Made by a program: the position numbers and the translations under genes. From positions 1-30,822 of the forward strand of contig JAYSSG010000091.1 in the NCBI GenBank assembly GCA_043720655.1: a stretch of 30,822 nucleotides of DNA, in the 5' to 3' direction. The DNA is from Candidatus Altimarinota bacterium (GTDB taxonomy: Bacteria; Patescibacteriota; Gracilibacteria; BD1-5; JAGOOR01). Shown piece by piece: positions 2,904 to 21,997 of this stretch (position 1 is the stretch's first letter; every line of letters begins with the position of its first letter). The notes below the pieces were generated by a model that was not told the DNA's origin, ran no database searches, and saw only the letters and a program-made list of their open reading frames with translations.

Positions 2904-3422
2904 ATGACAAAAATCCTAACTTCAGAAATATCTCAAATAGATAACCCATCCGATTTTCAGGCTGTTGGTCTTTGAAAGAAGATAGAGAATCTCTGATGAG
3001 AAGAATCGCTCTTTGCTTCACTCAAATGACTTGTCAGTCAAGCGAAAGGATATATGGAAAAGGCAAAAGGATTTGCTTCTCAAGCAAAACAAGATCGAGA
3101 AATGGCCAGTAATTTGGCTTCTCAGGCTCAGGCAAGTACTATCGAGGCAGGCGCTCTTGCGAAGACCACTGCCACGCTCAAAGAGGAAACTTCTGAACTC
3201 AAGAAATGAGCTGATGTTTCTGCTAAGAATGCTAATTCTTCTGAAAAAGAATCACTCGATGCTCTCGTTAACGCTAAAAAAGAGGCGAGCACAGCCGAGT
3301 CTGCAAAGAATGAGACTCTTCAAACGCAAGAACAAGTAACTCAGGCTGAAGTCAGAATAGAGGAGAAAATAGCGAGGATAGATGAAAAAGAGTCGATCGA
3401 GAAGAGTAGTCTTTTAGTATAA
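2904..3422 (+). CDS. Hypothetical Ala/Glu/Lys-rich coiled-coil protein, 172 aa
   Basis: Open to TAA 3422 with TGA=Gly, including tandem TGA TGA at 2994-2999. Confidence 0.8.
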
Positions 3423-3447
3423 CTTTATATCTTTAACTTTTTTATTT

Positions 3448-4806
3448 ATGACATCATCACAAGGACAAGAAAGAGCCATATCTTCGGCAATCAATACTTC
3501 TGAAGTAGCTCCAAATGCAGCCTCTGGTTTAGGTACTGTGGAAGCAAGCGATCGAGCGACACTTGAATTGAAAGGATCTCTAAAATCTCTTGGCCATGAG
3601 CCTGATAATGCTCCTGCACCTTCTGATGTTGCAGTAAAACCAACAGAGAACCCAAAAACAGAATTTGAAAAACAAAAACAAGAAACCCAAGGAGAATTGC
3701 AAGATATTATAAATGAAAGACAAAAACTTGCAGAAACCTGAAAACAGCTTGATACAAGAGAGGGTGAGATCAAAATACAACTTGAAATGCAGGCAAGAGA
3801 ATGAATAGAACGTTCTAAAGAAGCTAGAGCAGCTGTCAATGAAATCAGCAATCTTATTCCAGATTGAGCGCCAAATTCTCATAGAGACGCTCTGAAAAAA
3901 ACTCTTGAAACCCTGCCTGATATGATGACAGCAAAAGATGTAGCAGATTTTACAGAAAGAGCTCGTTGGGATGCTGCTAAAGCAAGTGTTTGAGACAAAG
4001 ATTTTGCAAATATGAGTCAGACAGAAAAAGATGTGGTCTCTGAAAGAGTGAAAAAGATGGGGGAAAATAATTCTTCAAATCCTGAAAGTGGTCATTGGGA
4101 TGCCGCCAAGGAATCAAGCGGCTTATCTCCAGATACAAAATGGGAGAATATGAGTCCTGTAGAACAAAAATTAGTACAAGAAAGATTTATGGAAGCGAAG
4201 AAAAAAGGAGATGTACCAGTTCCCGCTTCATCAGCTGCTGCGACAGTTTCAGAAGCAAATCTATGAGACGCACCAGTGGTGGCGCCAACAGTTGCTCCAC
4301 AAATATTTTCAGAGCCAACTGATACTTCTGAAGTAGCTCTAAATGCAGCACCCGATACTTCAACAAATACAATACAAATACCACGAACAGAAGGTCGTGC
4401 ACCTACCGTCGTTGGGAGATGAGTTTCGAGCTGAGACGCACGAGATGCAGAAACTCAAGCTTCTCCTGTGGATTGAAAGAATGATAATACGAACATTGAT
4501 ACATCTCTGTGATTTGATCGTATACAATGAAAAAAGCATTGATATCATACTGAACTTGATAAAAAATTATCTGACGGTTCAACTGTATCAGTGTATAATA
4601 ATAATGGTACAAGGTCCATAAATATTGGACCAAATATTCGCTTCGCTGATGATAATGCTTATAATTCTAATATTAATATCACCTTTAAAAGGGACGGGAA
4701 TATAAATGAAATTGTAGATACTAGAAATTGGAATCCTCTTACAGGTAATTCAAGGACTAAAATCTTAGAAGAATTGAAAAATATAGGTCTTACTCTCCCA
4801 AACTAA
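3448..4806 (+). CDS. Hypothetical protein, 452 aa, with internal repeats
   Basis: ORF-track pieces 3448-3741, 4012-4266 and 4591-4806 are one frame joined by TGA(Gly). Followed by a terminator. Confidence 0.85.
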
Positions 4807-4816
4807 TATACATTTT

Positions 4817-4860
4817 GAGCACTAAAAAACCTGTGATTCGTCACAGGTTTTTTAGTGCTC
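4817..4860. terminator. Bidirectional intrinsic terminator
   Basis: Perfect 20-bp stem GAGCACTAAAAAACCTGTGA-TTCG-TCACAGGTTTTTTAGTGCTC between convergent genes. Confidence 0.92.
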
Positions 4861-4869
4861 GTAGATCTT

Positions 4870-7800
4870 TTACTGACACAAACAAGCAACTACTTTGTCT
4901 GTTACCTGGTAATCTCGTGTCTGAGTTTTTCCATAACAATAGAATCGGTTTTCTCTTTCATAGATATAGAATCCTCCGAGTTGTGTAGGATTTGCTATTT
5001 TTCCAAAGAGGAAATTAAAGGTCCCCCATGTTGGCTCTCTTTCTCCAGAAGCACAAGCCTGAGCTTGGCTATCTTCTACCCAACAACTGTTGTTTTGATT
5101 ACATACTGTATTACAAGATTTAGTGCTATCTGTATCTACCCATGCGAGTGCCCGAGAACATACATGTCATGGTCGTGTAGTCGTACAATAGGAATCAGCT
5201 ACTACTTGTCCAGCTGTATTCTTACAGACAACGTCACGAGTGGTATTGCAAGTTGTCCCACACGTACTAGCATCACCTCGATACCATACATAACTTGTAC
5301 AGCTTTGTGTTGTTGTTGGTTTTGTCCCTGCATTACAGTAGGTATTTGAAACACTTGTACCATCACTTCTCCTACATGTTACTGGACGAGTTTGTGATCC
5401 ATTCGTACATGTGCCCCAATCGTTATTACTTGCATACCAATCATATGTCCAGCTATTACAACTTTGACTTGTGCTTGGTTTATTTCCTGCATTACAATAA
5501 GTATTTGTCACAATAACTCCATCATCTCTTTCACAGAGAATAGTACGATCTTGTACATTATTTTGACAAGTTCCCCAGTTTCCGATTTTCCAATCGTATG
5601 AGAAACTATTACAGCTCTGAGTTGTTGCTGGCTTTGTACCACTATTACAGCTCGAATTTGCTACTGTTTGTCCAGAACTATTTTGGCATAGTACATTTCG
5701 AGTCTGTTGATTAATTGAACACGTTCCCCAAGATCCACTGACCCAAGAGTATGTGGTACTGGTACAGCTTTGACTGCTTGATGGTTTTGTACCACTATTA
5801 CAGCTCGAATTTGCCACAATAACTCCATCATCTCTTTCACAGAGAATAGTACGATCTTGTACATTATTTTGACAAGTTCCCCAGTTTCCGATTTTCCAAT
5901 CGAAGGTAGTTATGTCACATGCCTGAGTATTGCATGTCTGACTTGTTGTTGGCATAGTGCCAGTACATTGCCAATTATTGACGACATATCCGATATTGCT
6001 ACGACACTCGACAATACGAGTTTTGGTTCCACCTCCACAGGTTGCATTGCAAGTATTCCAGCTTCCTGTATACCATGAGTAGTTTTGAGTTTGCACACAG
6101 CTACTTCCATCTCGGGTATACCCATAATCACACGTCCAATCACATGTTCCAGTTTGAGCATAGATTGAATTACTTGGTTTTCCCGTACAGTTTGTGCATA
6201 CAGTACCAGTAAGATATTGTCCTACACCACAATTTTGTGTGTAGGGAACACACTGGCTTCCTGAAGAGTAATAATTGGCATTACAAGCCCAGCTACATGA
6301 TCCTGCAGAGGTATAATAACTATTTGATGGTCCAGAGACACACGATTGGCAGGTACTTCCATTTGAGTATTGTCCAATGCTACAGTTCTGAGTATTGCTG
6401 ACACACGTATTCCCATCTCGGTAATATCCACTGTTACAATTCCAGTCACAGGTTCCATAATTTGAATAACTCGCACTTGATGGTTTGGTGGTACAGCTGT
6501 AGCAAGAGCTTCCAGAGAGATATTGCCCAATACCACAGGCTTGAGAGTCGCTTTCACATTTCCCATTTCTCTCAACATATCCTGAATTACAAGTCCAATC
6601 ACACGTTCCTTCTTCTTCATAATAAGCGTTAGAAGGACGACCGTTACATGAATAACAATTATCTCCAGATTCATATTCACCGAGTCCACACTCATTTGAA
6701 TTATCATTGTAATCTCCTACAGTAAATGTCTTATACCCCTCGATATCTGCATCATCTTTGTCAGTCACAACTACTTTGTACTCATAATCATCTTTCTTGA
6801 ATTGGATAAAGTTGTTGAGTGTTTTTTGTCCATCATTTGAAGATGTAAATGAGTAACCGTCATCATAATCGTTATCTATCTCATAGTAGGAAGAGGAAGT
6901 CGTTTTCACCCATGATGAAGACTCTGATCTGCGATAGTAGACCTCAAATTCTACATCTCCTTCATAGGAAGTGTCAGTGGAAGAACCATCTCGAGCACGG
7001 ATTGTCAGGTCTACTCAGTCATTTGTATCAGGAGAAGCATCGTCAGTACTAATATAAAAGTTATCAGTGTCTTTATTATTATCGTCGTTATCAGAATCTC
7101 CTACGGTAAATATTTTATACCCTTCGATATCATCATCGTCTTCATCAGCGACTACTACTTTGTACTCATAATCATCTTTCTTGAATCGAATAAAGTTAGC
7201 GAGGGTCTTCTGTCCTCTGTTTGCAGTAGTGAAAGAATAGCCGTCATCATAATCGTTATCTATCTCATAGTAGGAAGACGATGTCGTCTTGATCCATGAA
7301 GAAGATGAAGACGCTCGATAGTAGACTTCAAATTCTATATCTCCTTCATAGGACGTATCAGTAGAAGAACCATCTCGAGCACGAATAGTGAGATCTACAA
7401 AATTATTTATGTCTGGAGAAGCATCGTCAGTTGTGATATAGAAATTATCAGTATCACCTGAAGAAGAACCAATATCACCCACAGTAAATATCTTGTATCA
7501 TTCTGTATCGTCATTATCTTCGTCAGTCACGACTACTTTGTACGAGTAATCATCTTTTTTGAATCGAATAAAATTATTGAGTGTTTTTTGTCCATCATTT
7601 GAAGATGTAAATGAGTAACCGTCATCATAATCGTTATCTATCTCATAGTAGGAAGAGGAAGTCGTCTTCACCCAAGAAGATGAGGATGAAGTACGATAGT
7701 ATACATCGAAGTTCACCGTTCCTTTGTATGACGTATCAGTAGAAGAACCATCTCGAGCACGAATAGTGAGATCTACAAAATTATTTATGTCTGGAGAAGC

Positions 7801-8502
7801 ATCGTCAGTTGTGATATAGAAATTGTCGCCACTACTATTATTATCTGAATCATCATCTCAATTTTCACAATGCTCTATAGATCTTTGTGCATAAGCAAAT
7901 ACTTCTCGTCGGTATGCAATAGTGTTTGGCTTAAATGAGCTGATAGAAGGTATAATATCATTATCTTCTGCATACTGCATGACGGGTTTTTGCCAAGAAA
8001 CAGCGCCTGTTCCAGTAAATCTCCAGTCATCATAGCGCTCTCATCGGAACTCAAATCCAGCACTATCCATAATCATAGAAAGTGCTTCAGACTTTGTAAT
8101 ATCTTTCATTGGTTGGAAAAATGCTCTTCCTAGTGTGTCACGACGAGAGGTAGTAATGATATTGTTATCTGCCAAAATCTCTACTGATCGGCAAGCCCAC
8201 GTATTTGGACGTGAAGAAGTGACATCGTAGAAAAGATTGTCACAGTCATAGTCGTCTATTTCTGGGATACTATCGATTCGATCACATTTTTCTGCTACAC
8301 GAAGCGCGAGCGCTGCAACTTCTTGACGATAGATAGTCCGATCCAGACTATAGTCTCGGCAATCAGACTCTTCATAAATAATTCATGTATCTGCGAGATC
8401 ATGAGCCATAGTACACTCAGAGCCGGTATAGGCCATAGCAAGAGGTGAACACGCGATAGCGGCTCAGATCACTGCTAGATGTCGAATAAAATATGTATCC
8501 AT
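4870..8502 (-). CDS. Secreted surface protein, 1210 aa: signal peptide, SLH-like domains, 3 Ig-like repeats, 4 Cys-rich repeats, 6 TSP1-like repeats, Cys-rich C-terminal cap
   Basis: Single frame ATG 8502 to TAA 4870 with TGA=Gly. N-terminus MDTYFIRHLAVIGAAIACSPLAMA; SLH-like FQPMKDITKSEALSMI and FKPNTIAYRREV; TSP1-like WYTGSWNTCNATCGGGTKTRIVEC. Confidence 0.9.
5150..6080 (-). repeat. Six tandem TSP1-like repeats
   Basis: W-x4-5-W-x2-C...R-x3-C...C-x4-5-P...C pattern. 88 bp identical at 5509-5596 and 5815-5902. Confidence 0.85.
6715..7827 (-). repeat. Three tandem ~110-aa intragenic repeats with identical DNA blocks
   Basis: Repeat NFYITTDDASPD...LTIRARDGSSTDTSY...GYKIFTVG. 95 bp identical at 7352-7446 and 7730-7824; 89 bp identical at 6815-6903 and 7577-7665. 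Confidence 0.92.
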
Positions 8503-11885: not shown

Positions 11886-12064
11886 AAAAAGGAATGAAAG
11901 ATAGATACTTTTTTGTATTATCGTTATTTTTTAAAAAAATACACCTTTTGTTGAGAAAAATCGGACAGATTTTATTACTTTTTTTGTTTATTTGTCAATC
12001 GTATTCTGAGGCTGATTGGCTCTATCGGGTTGAATTGAGCAAAAAGATGCGGTATTCTATCTGT

Positions 12065-12889
12065 ATGTGAAAACATAAGAAACATAATCATTATAGCTTC
12101 GGATGAGTACCCCTCATGGATTGGTATGGTTTTGTGTTGGCTGCTTTTATAGTGGCAAGTGTTACGGCGTATGCCTTTTCTGTGTCTTTTGGTTCCTCAC
12201 GTGGTGCATTCAACAGTGCTCCCCAGGAATCCTTGGCTCTCGTGGCTATAGCTATTGCAAACAATGTTGGGACTGGAGCTTCTCGTGCCTCAGAAATTCC
12301 CGTGATGTCGCCCAATGATGTCGCCGTTGCTGGGGGTGCTATTGTACACGATGCGATGGATGGGGAAATATTTTTCTCTGATAATTTCCAACAACTGTCT
12401 GAGTATGAAGAAGTCGCTCGAATCGATGTGCCTTCTTACCTCAAAAACAAAACAAACAAACAAGAAGCTCTGGAGAGCTATATCGATGAGCTCATAAAAC
12501 ATACAGAAAAAGCCCGTGCCACTCTGCAGGCTATCACAGCTCAGATGCTCTTTCATAAAAATGCACTACAAAGCACTCAGTCAGATATCAAAAATACTCA
12601 AGCAGCTATAGAGGCATCCTACAAGAATCGAGACAGTAGTGGTATCATGGATAATATCGCTGATCTGGATGAATTTGTACTCGTACAGCAGGATCATAAG
12701 TATGGGCAAATATTTGGACAACAAATAGCCAAAGAATATCAGGATGTTATCACATTTTCAGAAAGCAAAATCCAAGTACTGAAAGCAAATATTTCCGCTC
12801 TGGTCCAATGAGTAACGGTCAATCTCCCAAAATGAATCCAGGTGACAGATTTGGAAAAGCTCCAGATATTTTCTCGTGAAACACTCTAA
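12065..12889 (+). CDS. Hypothetical protein with N-terminal membrane anchor and helical C-terminus, 274 aa
   Basis: ATG 12065 (second codon TGA) or 12116. Hydrophobic segment YGFVLAAFIVASVTAYAF. Ends at TAA 12889. Confidence 0.8.
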
Positions 12890-12893
12890 TTTT

Positions 12894-15236
12894 ATGTCTC
12901 AAATTTTTTCTTCTCTTGCTCGACTTTTCCAAAAGAAATATACCAAAATGTTTCTTATTTTCGGTGGGGTAATGCTTATGTGAGTCTGTTTTTGACAAAA
13001 TAATCCACAGTATACCGAGAGCGATATGACAAAAAACATTATTGAAATTTTTGACCTTATCTTTGGCTTACTGGCACTCATATTGTGACCAATGGTAGTA
13101 TTGGCTGGTTGGCTTCTCTCTCCAGACTGGACAATGGGTGACTTTTTTGGACTTCGTGGATATTTCAAAGAAGTATGGATACTTGTTGCCAATATTGTCT
13201 ATATCATCTTTGCCCTGATGCTCCTCTATATGGCTATTATGCAGATATTTGGAGGCTCTGAGAGTGAATATGCTTTTAAAAAGAAACTTCCGAGTTTTCT
13301 TGTAGGTATTTTGCTGGTGCCTTTTACATGGTTGATTGTCAGCTGGACACTCTCTTTTGCTAATCAAGCGGTGGCTGCTGTCCTCTCGATACCGATGGGG
13401 TCTATTGGTAAAATAAGTAAGACAGATGTTGGGACTCAAGATACTTCTATGTGGCACAAAAAAATGCTTCCAACGCAATTTGATTTTTCATCCAATGAGA
13501 GTGGATATGGTAATATGAAGTGTTCAGATGGTCTTTTGCAAAATAAAGATGGTACGACGACTCCCTGTATCTCACCAGCAGAATTTTTGACTCAAAATCA
13601 AGCGTGACCATTTTTTATCATTATGATTTATGCGTATAATATCTTTAAAATACAAGATGCAGATATTAATGAAATTAAAGATTTTTGTTCTGCAAAGACT
13701 GATTCTGGAAACAATGTAAAATATGAATCAGCGAAGAGTTGCGTGGAGAGTTTGGTGAGTATTCTTCGAAATTTTTGATTGAGCCTTGTCGTGACGGTAT
13801 TCTTTGCTGTGATGCTCATCGCTCTTTGCTGGGTACTTCTGATGCGAGCCATCAAGCTCTGGATATATATCATGCTTTCTCCTCTCTTTGGTCTCGCATA
13901 TTTCACTGGAAAATGATTTTCTGAAGGTGTAGGGGAGGCTGGAGAGTCATGATTTGGACAGGTATGATTTAAGTCATTTTTCAAGCTTGCAATGGTGCCG
14001 GTATTAGTCTCGGCTGTACTTGCTTTTGGACTTCTCTTTGTTTGAGTCGTGCGTGATAATTTCCACGGCGGAGTCAAAAATCCTGGTCAAACAGTCTTTT
14101 GTACGCAAGAAGGTGTCGGCTATATGGTGACCTATTGTATCGAGCAGACATGACCCACAACAGCACCAGTCTATAATTCAAAACTTATTATAGGAACTGA
14201 TACTACGACTGATGGTAAGAGCGATTCGAGAATTACTCTTAATTTCTGAGATGCATTTTCTCATATTATTGGTGGTGCTGAGGGGGATGGTGTTATCTCA
14301 TCTGCCTGAGGCGCTGTAGCTGGCGGCATTAGTAGTGTCGATGATGTTTTTGCTCATATTATCCTGACAATGATGGCTCTAGTATTTATGTTTATGGGGG
14401 TCAAAGTTGCTGCTAGCTATGATCCAGTGACTGAAGCCGCCTTTAAGCCATTCGCTTCTCTGGGTGAAAGTGTGGGTAATTTCGTCGCCCATTCACCAAG
14501 TTATTTACCTTTGCCACATCCAGCCTTTGCGGCGCTTACGCCAGCTGGTATGAAGGGGCTGAGTACTGTACTGGACAATAGTGTTCGTGAACATGAATAT
14601 GCCGCCGGTAAGAGTGCTGCGGATCTGTTTGATGGGAATCTAAATAGTTTTAAGTCATCTGTTTGAAATGCTGCCGCAAGTGCTGATGAGCTTAATAATA
14701 ACATGCAACGCGTTTCAAATGAAGCTCTCTCCCGTAATCCAAAAGAAGTCGCAAGTGCTATTAAACAGACTCTTCAGAAGATTAACACACCAGAAGCTAA
14801 ACAATTAGCAGAAATTATTAATGATAATGACAAATCTAATAAACGTCTCTGAGATGCTATTGATTCACATCAAGCACTTGTTGATACTGTAATTACTCAG
14901 GCAGGAGCAAGTAAAGATCCTCTCCGTCAGATGCTTGATAAGGCGAAGCAGGTATGAGAAGTACACAGTACTCAGGCAAGTACCCCACGGACTATCGACG
15001 GTAATATATGAACAATCACGGGTTCTTGAAAAAATCATACTGTTACAATTGACTGACAAACCCTTAACTTCAATTCCAGTTTTAATCAAACTGCACTCAA
15101 CCAAGATCAAAACAGAGCAATTACTAAATTAAAAACAGCTATAACAACGAATAACACTTTGGATATGGAAAAAGCTCAAAGACTTTTCCCTGGACTCCCA
15201 GAAGCAGATCTTAAGAAATATCTCCAGATTCCTTAA
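12894..15236 (+). CDS. Large multi-pass membrane protein, 780 aa, VirB6/TrbL-like pattern
   Basis: One frame with many TGA(Gly). Multiple TM segments; WILVANIVYIIFALMLLYMA and MRAIKLWIYIMLSPL. The family call is pattern-based. Confidence 0.75.
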
Positions 15237-20522: not shown

Positions 20523-21533
20523 CTATGGTTTTAGAAGTCTTTCTACTGTAGAAACTAACTTTTCTGATGTGACTTCGTCTGCATCAAAAAATGATTGTCC
20601 CATTTCTGTCAGTATTCCATGCGTTTTTGAGCTGTAGCTGATAGCGAGAAGTGGTATTCTCATAACAGAAGCCAGAATAATGCTATGGAGTCTCATTCCA
20701 ATAATTGCATCACAAATAGTGTAGGTTGCCAGTGTTTGCTCTATTGTTTGTGCTATTTTAACCCCAGGAAAGAGAAATCTCTGCAAATAATATCCATCAT
20801 GGGCAGCGATGTTATCTGGATGGAGCGAATGTGGGAGGAGATAGACTGTGTAATCTTTCTGGAGCAATGTCCTTATGGTGGCTGCTACGACTTTATCTGA
20901 TACAAATCATCATCTCAGAGCCACTCCAATGATTTTTCATTCTTTTTGTTGCAAAGAGGATTCTTTATTTGCTTTGTATTCAAAAACAGGATCGACCTGT
21001 ATATTTGCTGTATATCAAAGGAAAAATACTTTTTTCTGACTTTCTTTATCTCGTACAGTGATGGTAGCATTTTTAAAAATTCCTTTAGCATATTGTTTGA
21101 GCTCATTGTCTTTTGCGCTGACTCATAGGGAAAGGTAGGTAAGAGGTTTTCTCATTATTTTCGCAAGTATTGCGCGCATCCACCAGAGATGGAGAGGTGA
21201 ATGTCACTCTTCTGAGGCGCCATAGAGAAGTCCACCACCACCGATATAGATATGACTTGAAGCGTAAAATGCACGTAATGTCTGTAAAAGATATCCTATA
21301 TTTCTCATGGGATTTTTCCGTATATTTGTTGGAAAATAGGGAAGTATGGTGAGATTTGTTTCTGAGAGATTTTGTGAACGAAAAAATCTCCATGTTCGAG
21401 AGGGATCATGAGAAAAGAGTGTAATTCTTACCTCTGGATTTTGATTTCGAAGACTCTGTATTTCACAGAGGGTGATGAGTTCGTCACCGAGATTTTCAGC
21501 GCCTGTGGCGGTCATGAGAACGATAGTATTCAT
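20523..21533 (-). CDS. Polysaccharide pyruvyl transferase family protein (CsaB-like), 336 aa
   Basis: GAENLGDE, GGGGLLY, ITVRDKES, DPVF, IGMRLHSIILA. One frame across several TGA. Confidence 0.88.
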
Positions 21534-21541
21534 TGGTGGTA

Positions 21542-21997
21542 TTATTTCTCTATTCCTTGGGTAAGTATCTGGAAATGTTTCTTTGAGACCGTTTGTACTG
21601 AGAGTCGTGATCCTTTTTGAGTCACAACCATATCAGACAAGAGAGAATGAGATTTTATATCTTTCAATGATATAGTATCAAATTTTTTTACAAAATCCAT
21701 TTTTCGTGTTATCCATATTGGTTTTTCGAGGGTACTTTTGCTATCATAATGCTCATCCATGACGTCGAGAGCAGTCATATCAGGAAGTGCCTCGCTTGAT
21801 ACCCGCATCAGTCATACAATTCATGGGATGTCACAATTAGAATGATAGAAGAAGCATATATCTCACACCTTCATCGAATCACGCAGAATATTTCTTGCTT
21901 GATAGTTTCGTACACCAGTCCAAGAAGTCGTTGCATCTTTCTTGAGGTTATCAATGTTGTAACAATTTGGCTCAGATTTGAGAAGAAAATAATTCAT
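21542..21997 (-). CDS. EVE domain protein, 151 aa
   Basis: YFLLKSEP, WTGVRNYQARN, FFYHSNC, SRLSVQTV. Confidence 0.92.

Follow-up and report, generated by a model that had tools for sequence, protein, structure and literature searches.

A candidate adhesin combining predicted thrombospondin type-1 repeats with an S-layer homology-type wall anchor in a gracilibacterium that reads TGA as glycine

The DNA considered here, a stretch of 30,822 nucleotides from a Candidatus Altimarinota bacterium of the Gracilibacteria (contig JAYSSG010000091.1; hereafter the window), carries on its minus strand, at 4870..8502, a gene for a large secreted protein in which six thrombospondin type-1 (TSP1) repeats of the TSP1_ADAMTS family are genuine by profile match and by predicted fold. 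Together with its other modules, this protein, called the adhesin below after its presumed role, appears to be a fibrillar protein of the cell surface, exported by the Sec pathway and held non-covalently on the wall of a Gracilibacteria/Peribacteria cell that uses genetic code 25, and its likeliest job, held with a moderate degree of confidence, would be adhesion to a host or prey. To our knowledge, type IV pili are the only attachment mechanism with experimental support in the candidate phyla radiation (CPR), and host attachment by code-25 CPR bacteria is otherwise little understood. In this respect, the gene provides a concrete and expressible adhesin candidate: its modules are defined, and sister species offer naturally occurring versions in which they are swapped.

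As noticed in a preliminary reading made without database searches (hereafter the sequence-only reading), the first TSP1 repeat (residues 807-865; 5908..6084, minus strand) closely follows the ADAMTS-type pattern: it covers the PF19030 profile in full (positions 1-55 of 55), has six cysteines at canonical positions and carries the CxxTCGGG motif in the form C-N-A-T-C-G-G-G. Repeats 2-6 occupy residues 866-1112 (5167..5907, minus strand) and are delineated by PF19030, the structural model and Foldseek, the six repeats starting at about residues 807, 866, 917, 968, 1019 and 1072. On residues 805-1115 the PF19030 score is 138.1 bits, spread over six stretches, and for the full-length protein it is 87.6 bits, the cut-off being 23.8; its six-frame matches in the genome number five, every one inside the adhesin gene, and phmmer against the PDB retrieves THSD7A (1.2e-6) as well as thrombospondin-1. 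Of the six W..W-x2-C...R-x3-C repeats announced beforehand, the positions and the family stand, but the pattern does not extend to the last one: repeats 1-5 have two tryptophans each (W-x4-6-W), whereas repeat 6 has one only, is truncated with four cysteines and runs into the C-terminal cap, from which it probably borrows cysteine. Regarding the predicted fold, an AlphaFold2 model based on 45 aligned arrays has a predicted local distance difference test (pLDDT) score of 86-96 over the repeats. The best Foldseek match of this model is THSD7A (4.4e-7), followed by the thrombospondin type-1 repeats (TSRs) of properdin, semaphorin-5A and thrombospondin-1, and an all-against-all structural scan (VIA) ranks the same TSR proteins first, with a Z score of 7.3 for THSD7A over two domains. 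In the VIA comparison, repeat 1 of the predicted model fits the Sema5A and TSP-1 TSRs with a root-mean-square deviation of 2.1-2.6 A at 32-36% identity, one TSR of each giving 2.1 A (semaphorin-5A) and 2.5 A (thrombospondin-1). In the sequence alignment, one arginine of repeat 1 matches the first ladder arginine of thrombospondin-1. The elongated, three-stranded TSP1 fold expected beforehand is thus returned by structure prediction, all top Foldseek and VIA matches being TSR structures. The isoelectric point (pI) of the TSP1 segment is 7.9, vs. 4.0-4.4 elsewhere in the adhesin.

The gene itself had been proposed to result from the merging of four open reading frame (ORF) fragments and their unannotated ends into one protein of 1210 residues with TGA read as Gly, and it does form a single frame of 1210 codons from an ATG start to a TAA stop under code 25. 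Only five codons separate the upstream stop from the ATG, the frame includes seven in-frame TGA codons, and translation with table 11 splits it into fragments, e.g. 5167-6909 and 7015-7482. The mature protein has a calculated mass of 131.8 kDa and a pI of 4.29. The adhesin has 65 cysteines, 58 of which lie past residue 600. The order of its modules was obtained with HMMs made from its own repeats, together with Pfam. Where homologues are informative, the TGA codon at residue 40 aligns with a column that is Gly in 10/10 homologues, those at residues 215 and 335 with Gly in the aligned orthologues and that at residue 154 with Gly in one orthologue; reciprocally, TGA codons of the orthologues fall on Gly in the adhesin in four of five cases. 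Off the window, at 4061-4227 of contig C46 of the same genome, a tRNA with anticodon UCA, labelled 'SeC' by ARAGORN, lies 12 bases from tRNA-Gly(GCC), an arrangement that, as far as sequence can tell, would be expected where TGA is decoded as Gly. On the contig of the adhesin, housekeeping genes including AspRS, RecG, RsmH and RlmL likewise require sense TGA. Because homologue columns, reciprocal cases, tRNA(UCA) and same-contig housekeeping genes agree, the predicted reading of TGA as Gly in this genome is well supported. Code 4, in which TGA would be Trp, was rejected, since residue 496 alone aligns with Trp and the other informative and reciprocal positions align with Gly. At this residue, encoded by the TGA at 7015-7017, both orthologues have Trp, and most repeats of the family hold an aromatic residue there; TGG seems to have turned into TGA, with Gly replacing the usual aromatic residue.

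The internal similarity of the repeats, a scaffold gap in the TSP array of the orthologue from the sister genome G015 and the break of public contigs at an 88-nt repeat are features that an artefact could produce, be it an assembly chimera, a eukaryotic contamination or a frame open through the wrong code. Against this stand full-length orthologues found in the same slot in independent metagenome-assembled genomes (MAGs), one of them on a 701-kb contig, as well as the alignment of TGA with Gly, the tRNA(UCA) and the flanking bacterial housekeeping genes with sense TGA. In addition, three runs belonging to a single study of sediment yielded contigs that are 100% identical to the window over 4600-6700 with an even depth of about 43x, except at 5845-5872, a 28-base stretch covered by none of the matching public contig pieces listed, and their depths fit the assembled order. 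The 88-nt stretch in question (5509-5596 and about 5815-5902) has twice the local depth in the public contigs because TSP repeats 2 and 4 have near-identical cores. Eukaryotic contamination and assembly chimera were therefore rejected on synteny, TGA usage and read-level support, and an artefact of whichever kind is hardly credible. Of note, the strain in run X4 is a variant, which differs by 8 substitutions within 4691-5691.

Upstream of the TSP1 array in the protein, three acidic repeats had been described as Ig-like, and the description proved accurate. These domains (residues 226-351, 352-479 and 480-604, hence starting at 226, 352 and 480; 6691..7827, minus strand) are, in the predicted structure, Ig-like beta-sandwiches of about 126 residues each, devoid of cysteine, with a pI of 4.05, and 82% identical to each other at the protein level; at the DNA level, TRF reports a period of 384 with 2.9 copies and 80% matches. 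The Ig-like domain reaches a pLDDT of 90-98 and the VIA matches of the beta-sandwich span Z scores of 9-11.5: MG2 of complement C3 (Z 11.5), the C-terminal Ig domains of GH2 glycosidases (Z about 11, root-mean-square deviation 1.9 A) and the stalk domains of InvE, intimin, invasin and FdeC (Z 9-10.5). Sequence profiles are less telling, as no significant Pfam family was found for this domain, the best being BatD in 6 of 46 members at 3.3e-4, and the family profile gave zero matches against PDB sequences. The module occurs alone in 50 of the 185 proteins retrieved. Its resemblance to the domains of the invasin, intimin and FdeC adhesins is counted here in favour of adhesion. The top fold match, a macroglobulin domain of the MG2 type of complement C3 and alpha-2-macroglobulin, could also be taken to suggest a protective or decoy coat, directed against host proteases, phages or grazers, rather than an adhesin, and fast-evolving repeat arrays are also found in phage-evasion proteins. 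Still, neither a thioester nor a bait region is present and only one MG-like fold type occurs, no defence genes adjoin the locus, and the TSR and EGF-like rods are typical binding or spacer modules, all of which makes a coat function very improbable.

Between the Ig-like domains and the TSP1 array lie four six-Cys repeats (residues 605-806; 6085..6690, minus strand), which begin at residues 605, 656, 707 and 758 with a period of 51 and are delineated by EGF_MSP1_1 and Foldseek. Their position and cysteine pattern agree with what had been read beforehand, but the ephrin-receptor-like/GCC label then suggested is not confirmed, as PF07699 (ephrin-receptor-like/GCC2_GCC3) matches none of 25 members of the Cys-repeat family at E<=0.1. 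The EGF_MSP1_1 profile gives 28.6 bits on residues 600-812 (cut-off 27), yet 12.3 bits on the whole protein, and matches 15 of the 25 family members. In a second model, covering residues 480-812 with a 40-row alignment and an overall pLDDT of 88, the six-Cys repeats fold into beta-hairpin units at a pLDDT of 77-95; Foldseek matches include CRELD2 (1.5e-4, probability 0.99), the Chlamydomonas mastigoneme protein Mst1 (6.5e-4) and the Cys-rich region of EphA2 (about 3e-3). The Cys-repeat profile against the PDB gives weak matches to the Cys-rich regions of EphB2 (E 0.028) and EphA2 (E 0.084). 'EGF/furin-like Cys-rich repeat' is accordingly the safer name for these 51-residue units.

At its other end, the array runs into a C-terminal cap (residues 1113-1210; 4873..5166, minus strand), which is conserved in orthologues. 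It comprises 98 residues with eight cysteines and a C-L-C-Q terminus, is 67-75% identical in the orthologues of the sister genomes G003 and G015, and is also found in P0069 and P0053, the eight cysteines being invariant. Searches for relatives of the cap returned Pfam noise only, scores below 0.8 in the Atlas feature search and no fold match covering it.

Regarding export, the signal peptide announced beforehand can be read from the sequence: in residues 1-24 (8431..8502, minus strand) the n-region is charged, the core hydrophobic and the putative cleavage site A-M-A|Y, of which A24 and Y25 are invariant in the alignment of 10 homologues, and in a hydropathy scan they form the sole hydrophobic stretch of the adhesin, with no further transmembrane segment. 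It is followed by a triple cell-wall anchor of the S-layer homology (SLH) type (residues 25-219; 7846..8430, minus strand), identified by homology to SLH-bearing N-termini. The anchor shares 46-52% identity over about 215 residues with nine proteins matching PF00395, a family matched by 9/10 homologous N-termini with a best E of 8.5e-12; one of these SLH-matching homologues, from Candidatus Peribacteria, is named S-layer homology domain-containing protein. The profile of the anchor family has the SLH trimer of Sap (3pyw) as its top PDB match (E 0.017). TRAE-like motifs occur as YRQE, TKSE and YRRE in the adhesin and as TRQE, TRAE and YRRD/E in homologues, and Arg59 and Arg198 of the anchor are invariant in the homologue alignment. 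In SpaA and Sap, the Arg of the TRAE-like motif binds a pyruvate ketal (PMC6081394). On the same contig and 12 kb away from the adhesin gene, a CsaB-type polysaccharide pyruvyl transferase is encoded at 20523..21716 on the minus strand (PF04230, 116.5 bits, profile positions 1-280 of 280), and judging from its sequence this enzyme probably makes the pyruvylated wall polymer bound by SLH domains.

Nine ORFs of the genome carry this SLH-type anchor, the adhesin included, the eight others being located on contigs C22, C32, C48, C54, C59, C81, C83 and C87 (loci L032-L039). The passengers of these eight range from a subtilase S8 with TPR repeats and an M23 peptidoglycan peptidase to Big_13/fn3 modules, and two of the proteins are Cys-rich; among the nine, the adhesin is the sole carrier of the Ig-like, six-Cys, TSP1 and cap modules. 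With such varied passengers on one anchor, SLH looks like a general display system of this cell, and the proteins so displayed would together suit an epibiotic or predatory cell as a surface toolkit. An SLH-bearing protein could also be a structural subunit of an S-layer or sheath that self-assembles into an outer layer, its repeats acting as lattice or spacer domains. The N-terminal triple SLH, the pI of 4.3, the size of about 130 kDa and the Ig-like domains would indeed place it in the class of Sap, EA1 and SbsC, and some of the weaker fold matches are to SbsC domains. However, S-layer proteins are typically almost devoid of cysteine and the adhesin has 65; the prediction is a thin beads-on-a-string rod with a low predicted template modelling score (0.33-0.43) instead of a compact lattice unit; the passenger differs between sister species; and the genome holds eight other SLH proteins. 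A role as layer subunit is hence considered improbable, although less so than that of a protective coat.

Coming back to adhesion as the preferred function, the following course of events may be envisaged. The protein would be exported by the Sec pathway and its signal peptide, judging from the cleavage site, cut after residue 24; the triple-SLH module would then dock on a secondary wall polymer, pyruvylated with the help of the CsaB-type enzyme. Outside the cell, the 58 cysteines past residue 600 are expected to form disulfides by oxidative folding, and the three Ig-like, four EGF/furin-like and six TSP repeats would, given their predicted folds, constitute a thin rod holding the Cys-rich cap off the wall, for an estimated length, given the known sizes of such domains, of about 50-60 nm. 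By analogy with the TSRs of TRAP/MIC2, properdin and thrombospondin-1, the mildly basic TSP segment, the cap or both may attach to another cell, through an anionic glycan or a protein. The grip on a host is our inference, and the protein makes a good candidate for it. Several observations weigh against this reading. Among the sequencing runs listed, none is of RNA. The cap, which would be the most likely binding tip, is modelled with a pLDDT below 60. TSP1 repeats 2-5 have four cysteines each, the second and the sixth being absent, presumably the two that pair with each other in the disulfide pattern of the thrombospondin-1 TSR, and the predicted Trp/Arg ladder is short, with two Trp and one aligned Arg. 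As for the formation of disulfides, the sole component found is a DsbB-family match (contig C53, 15629-15832, 30.6 bits), and DsbA, Thioredoxin_4 and VKOR profiles have no match in this 84%-complete genome. Regarding the anchor, the second TRAE-like motif has Lys in place of Arg, and no Pfam family matches residues 1-230 of the adhesin at E<=10, SLH included; the SLH-like anchors of the sequence-only reading are thus upheld as members of a family whose other copies match SLH, but not through a Pfam match of the adhesin's own copy.

On the ecological side, Vampirococcus, a relative that also uses code 25, is surrounded by a wall of the Gram-positive type, and a part in attachment to the host has been proposed for its giant surface proteins (PMC8080830); groundwater Gracilibacteria appear to be host-dependent (PMC11452946); both papers deal with relatives, not with the source organism, which by analogy is probably host-dependent as well. 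The flanking DNA occurs in metagenomic runs from sediment and from freshwater. This habitat would also suit a protein of general stickiness or a matrix protein, whose fibre would bind mineral or organic particles, biofilm polysaccharides or sister cells, e.g. in stacking, instead of a specific host. The module architecture fits such a function equally well, and the ligands of TSRs and EGF-like repeats are highly varied. Vampirococcus cells have moreover been described as sticky and pile-forming (PMC8080830). On the other hand, a conserved Cys-rich cap suggests a defined ligand, and module swapping at a fixed locus, as described hereafter, is more easily reconciled with a specificity determinant than with a generic glue, so that general stickiness is considered unlikely, if the least unlikely of the alternatives to specific adhesion.

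The relatives were found by alignment of the SLH anchor; they are MAGs that bear the name of an uncultured Candidatus Peribacteria or Gracilibacteria bacterium. In four sister species (G003, G015, G014 and G008), an SLH-anchored gene occupies the same slot as the adhesin gene, beside MgtC/DUF4010 and AspRS, with 42-74% identity to the adhesin over the signal peptide and SLH anchor. Behind this anchor, the passenger consists of two acidic Ig-like domains, four six-Cys repeats, seven TSP repeats and the cap in G003; three acidic Ig-like domains, four six-Cys repeats, at least nine TSP repeats (with the scaffold gap in the array) and the cap in G015; nine six-Cys and four TSP repeats in G014; and ten six-Cys repeats in G008. 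In the G015 orthologue (locus L016, contig C6 of this genome), the gap is a run of N inside the TSP1 array at about 7800-7900 of the locus; such an array is evidently hard to assemble, and the repeat count of G015 is uncertain. Compared with G003 and G015, identity amounts to 88-90% for AspRS, 79-84% for MgtC, 67-74% for the adhesin overall and 47-54% for TSP repeats 2-5, which are the fastest-changing block of the adhesin. A fixed anchor and slot with swapped passengers and a variable number of repeats is, as judged from these sequences, the pattern expected for a specificity-determining surface protein. A bolder proposal, put forward tentatively and regarded as doubtful, is that the MgtC/AspRS slot would be a cassette-swapping host-range locus of this Gracilibacteria lineage, in which recombination would join a fixed SLH anchor to exchangeable Ig-like, EGF-like, TSR and cap modules, in which the TSR array and the cap would read glycans of the host envelope, the host being perhaps even a microbial eukaryote, and in which TSRs would have a bacterial history of their own. 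If true, TSRs would be a working module of prokaryotic cell-cell adhesion and not an animal invention that is occasionally borrowed.

Besides, the surroundings of the slot call for some observations. The region from the adhesin to the next conserved gene differs among species. Immediately downstream of the adhesin, two ORFs overlap on opposite strands, at 3448-4806 (plus strand, 452 residues) and 3414-4619 (minus strand, 401 residues), with no Pfam match and no counterpart in the sister loci. Two plus-strand ORFs, at 12876-15236 (786 residues with 18 TGA codons) and 11894-12889 (331 residues), have counterparts near AspRS in sister species at 62-72% identity and no Pfam match either.

Regarding the distribution of the repeats, the family reaches beyond the window within CPR: PF19030 was found in 9 of 40 relatives and in 5 of 400 other, evenly drawn Patescibacteria, three of them above the cut-off. 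It was found in 0/14 control genomes and, at E<=1e-5, in 0/400 Pseudomonadota other than the seed genome of Sphingomonas sp. 3-13AW. The latter, a 4.4-Mb genome, contains 48 PF19030 matches in four genes, located on its contig C1 at about 275-277 kb, 404 kb, 428-432 kb and 577-581 kb, and a protein of this organism with 24 TSP1 repeats is named 'thrombospondin type-1 domain-containing protein' in RefSeq (WP_422513524.1). Among the top-scoring TSP arrays, bacterial, metagenomic and eukaryotic ones (hemichordate, euglenid) are mixed at 35-47% identity, and vertebrate ADAMTS proteins share 24-28% identity with the adhesin; the modules of the adhesin are also found singly in many metagenomic proteins. 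The sequence-only reading had presented TSP1 as a eukaryote-type repeat; given the Sphingomonas RefSeq protein and the relatives of the present bacterium, it is not confined to eukaryotes. In the literature, TSP1 has been regarded as a domain of the animal lineage that reached apicomplexans by transfer (PMC3417536), and searches combining Gracilibacteria, Patescibacteria or prokaryotes with thrombospondin or TSP1 returned no paper describing bacterial TSP1 adhesins. Bacterial TSP1 proteins are nonetheless already annotated in RefSeq. New here are a longer version of the protein, which includes Ig-like domains and a conserved cap, the interpretation of the slot as a locus of module swapping, the repertoire of SLH-anchored enzymes of the same genome and the sampled frequencies of PF19030. 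The adhesin adds to the evidence that bacteria use thrombospondin type-1 repeats, and in a CPR cell a display of Gram-positive style, based on SLH and a pyruvylated polymer, would present adhesin-like fibres along with proteases and a peptidoglycan hydrolase.

Among known systems, the SLH proteins of Firmicutes, namely Sap and EA1 of B. anthracis as well as SpaA and SlhA of Paenibacillus alvei, share with the adhesin an anchor at the N-terminus, made of a triple SLH-type module bearing TRAE-like motifs, a CsaB-type pyruvyl transferase in the genome, on which their own pyruvylated wall polymer depends, and several passengers per anchor type (for the mechanism, see PMC6081394). They differ in that the present anchor is very divergent, the copy of the adhesin being missed by Pfam and the best PDB match standing at E 0.017, in that the bacterium belongs to CPR with a genome of about 0.8-1 Mb, and in that the passenger is Cys-rich and made of modules that are otherwise mostly eukaryotic. 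As for these modules, the TSRs of ADAMTS and ADAMTS-like proteins, THSD7A, properdin and thrombospondin-1 likewise form tandem rod-like arrays, and the six-Cys repeat 1 with its CxxTCGGG motif is of the same make. Unlike in animals, the repeats are found here in a bacterium and on an SLH wall anchor, repeats 2-5 have four cysteines only, the predicted ladder is short, with W-x4-W and one aligned Arg, and neither C-mannosylation nor O-fucosylation would be expected in a bacterial protein. The EGF/furin-like proteins CRELD2, Eph receptors, Mst1 and the EGF module of Plasmodium MSP1 appear to have in common with the Cys-rich repeats the six-Cys beta-hairpin, as predicted for the adhesin, and the C-x3-C-x2-G-Y-x5-C tail, whereas the whole 51-residue unit fits no curated family. 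Within bacteria, WP_422513524.1 provides a TSP1 array that is 41% identical to the adhesin over all matched stretches; it originates, however, from a Gram-negative alphaproteobacterium with the standard code, has neither SLH, Ig-like, six-Cys nor cap modules, and keeps another subset of the cysteine positions. For function, the apicomplexan proteins TRAP and MIC2, whose TSRs are among the fold matches (Z 2.4-3.3 by VIA), offer an analogy, since they expose TSRs on the surface of a host-dependent cell, presumably for host binding. Their transmembrane anchor, their cytoplasmic tail tied to the gliding motor and their vWA domain are all absent from the adhesin, and the likeness is one of function by analogy only, not of family membership. 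The genes at the sister loci, lastly, have the same anchor family, the same slot and the same types of six-Cys and TSP1 modules. Relative to G014 and G008, the adhesin and its counterparts in G003 and G015 have in addition two or three acidic Ig-like domains and the Cys-rich cap, with four six-Cys repeats instead of nine or ten, and the TSP1 repeats number six in the adhesin, seven in G003 and at least nine in G015, vs. four or none in G014 and G008.

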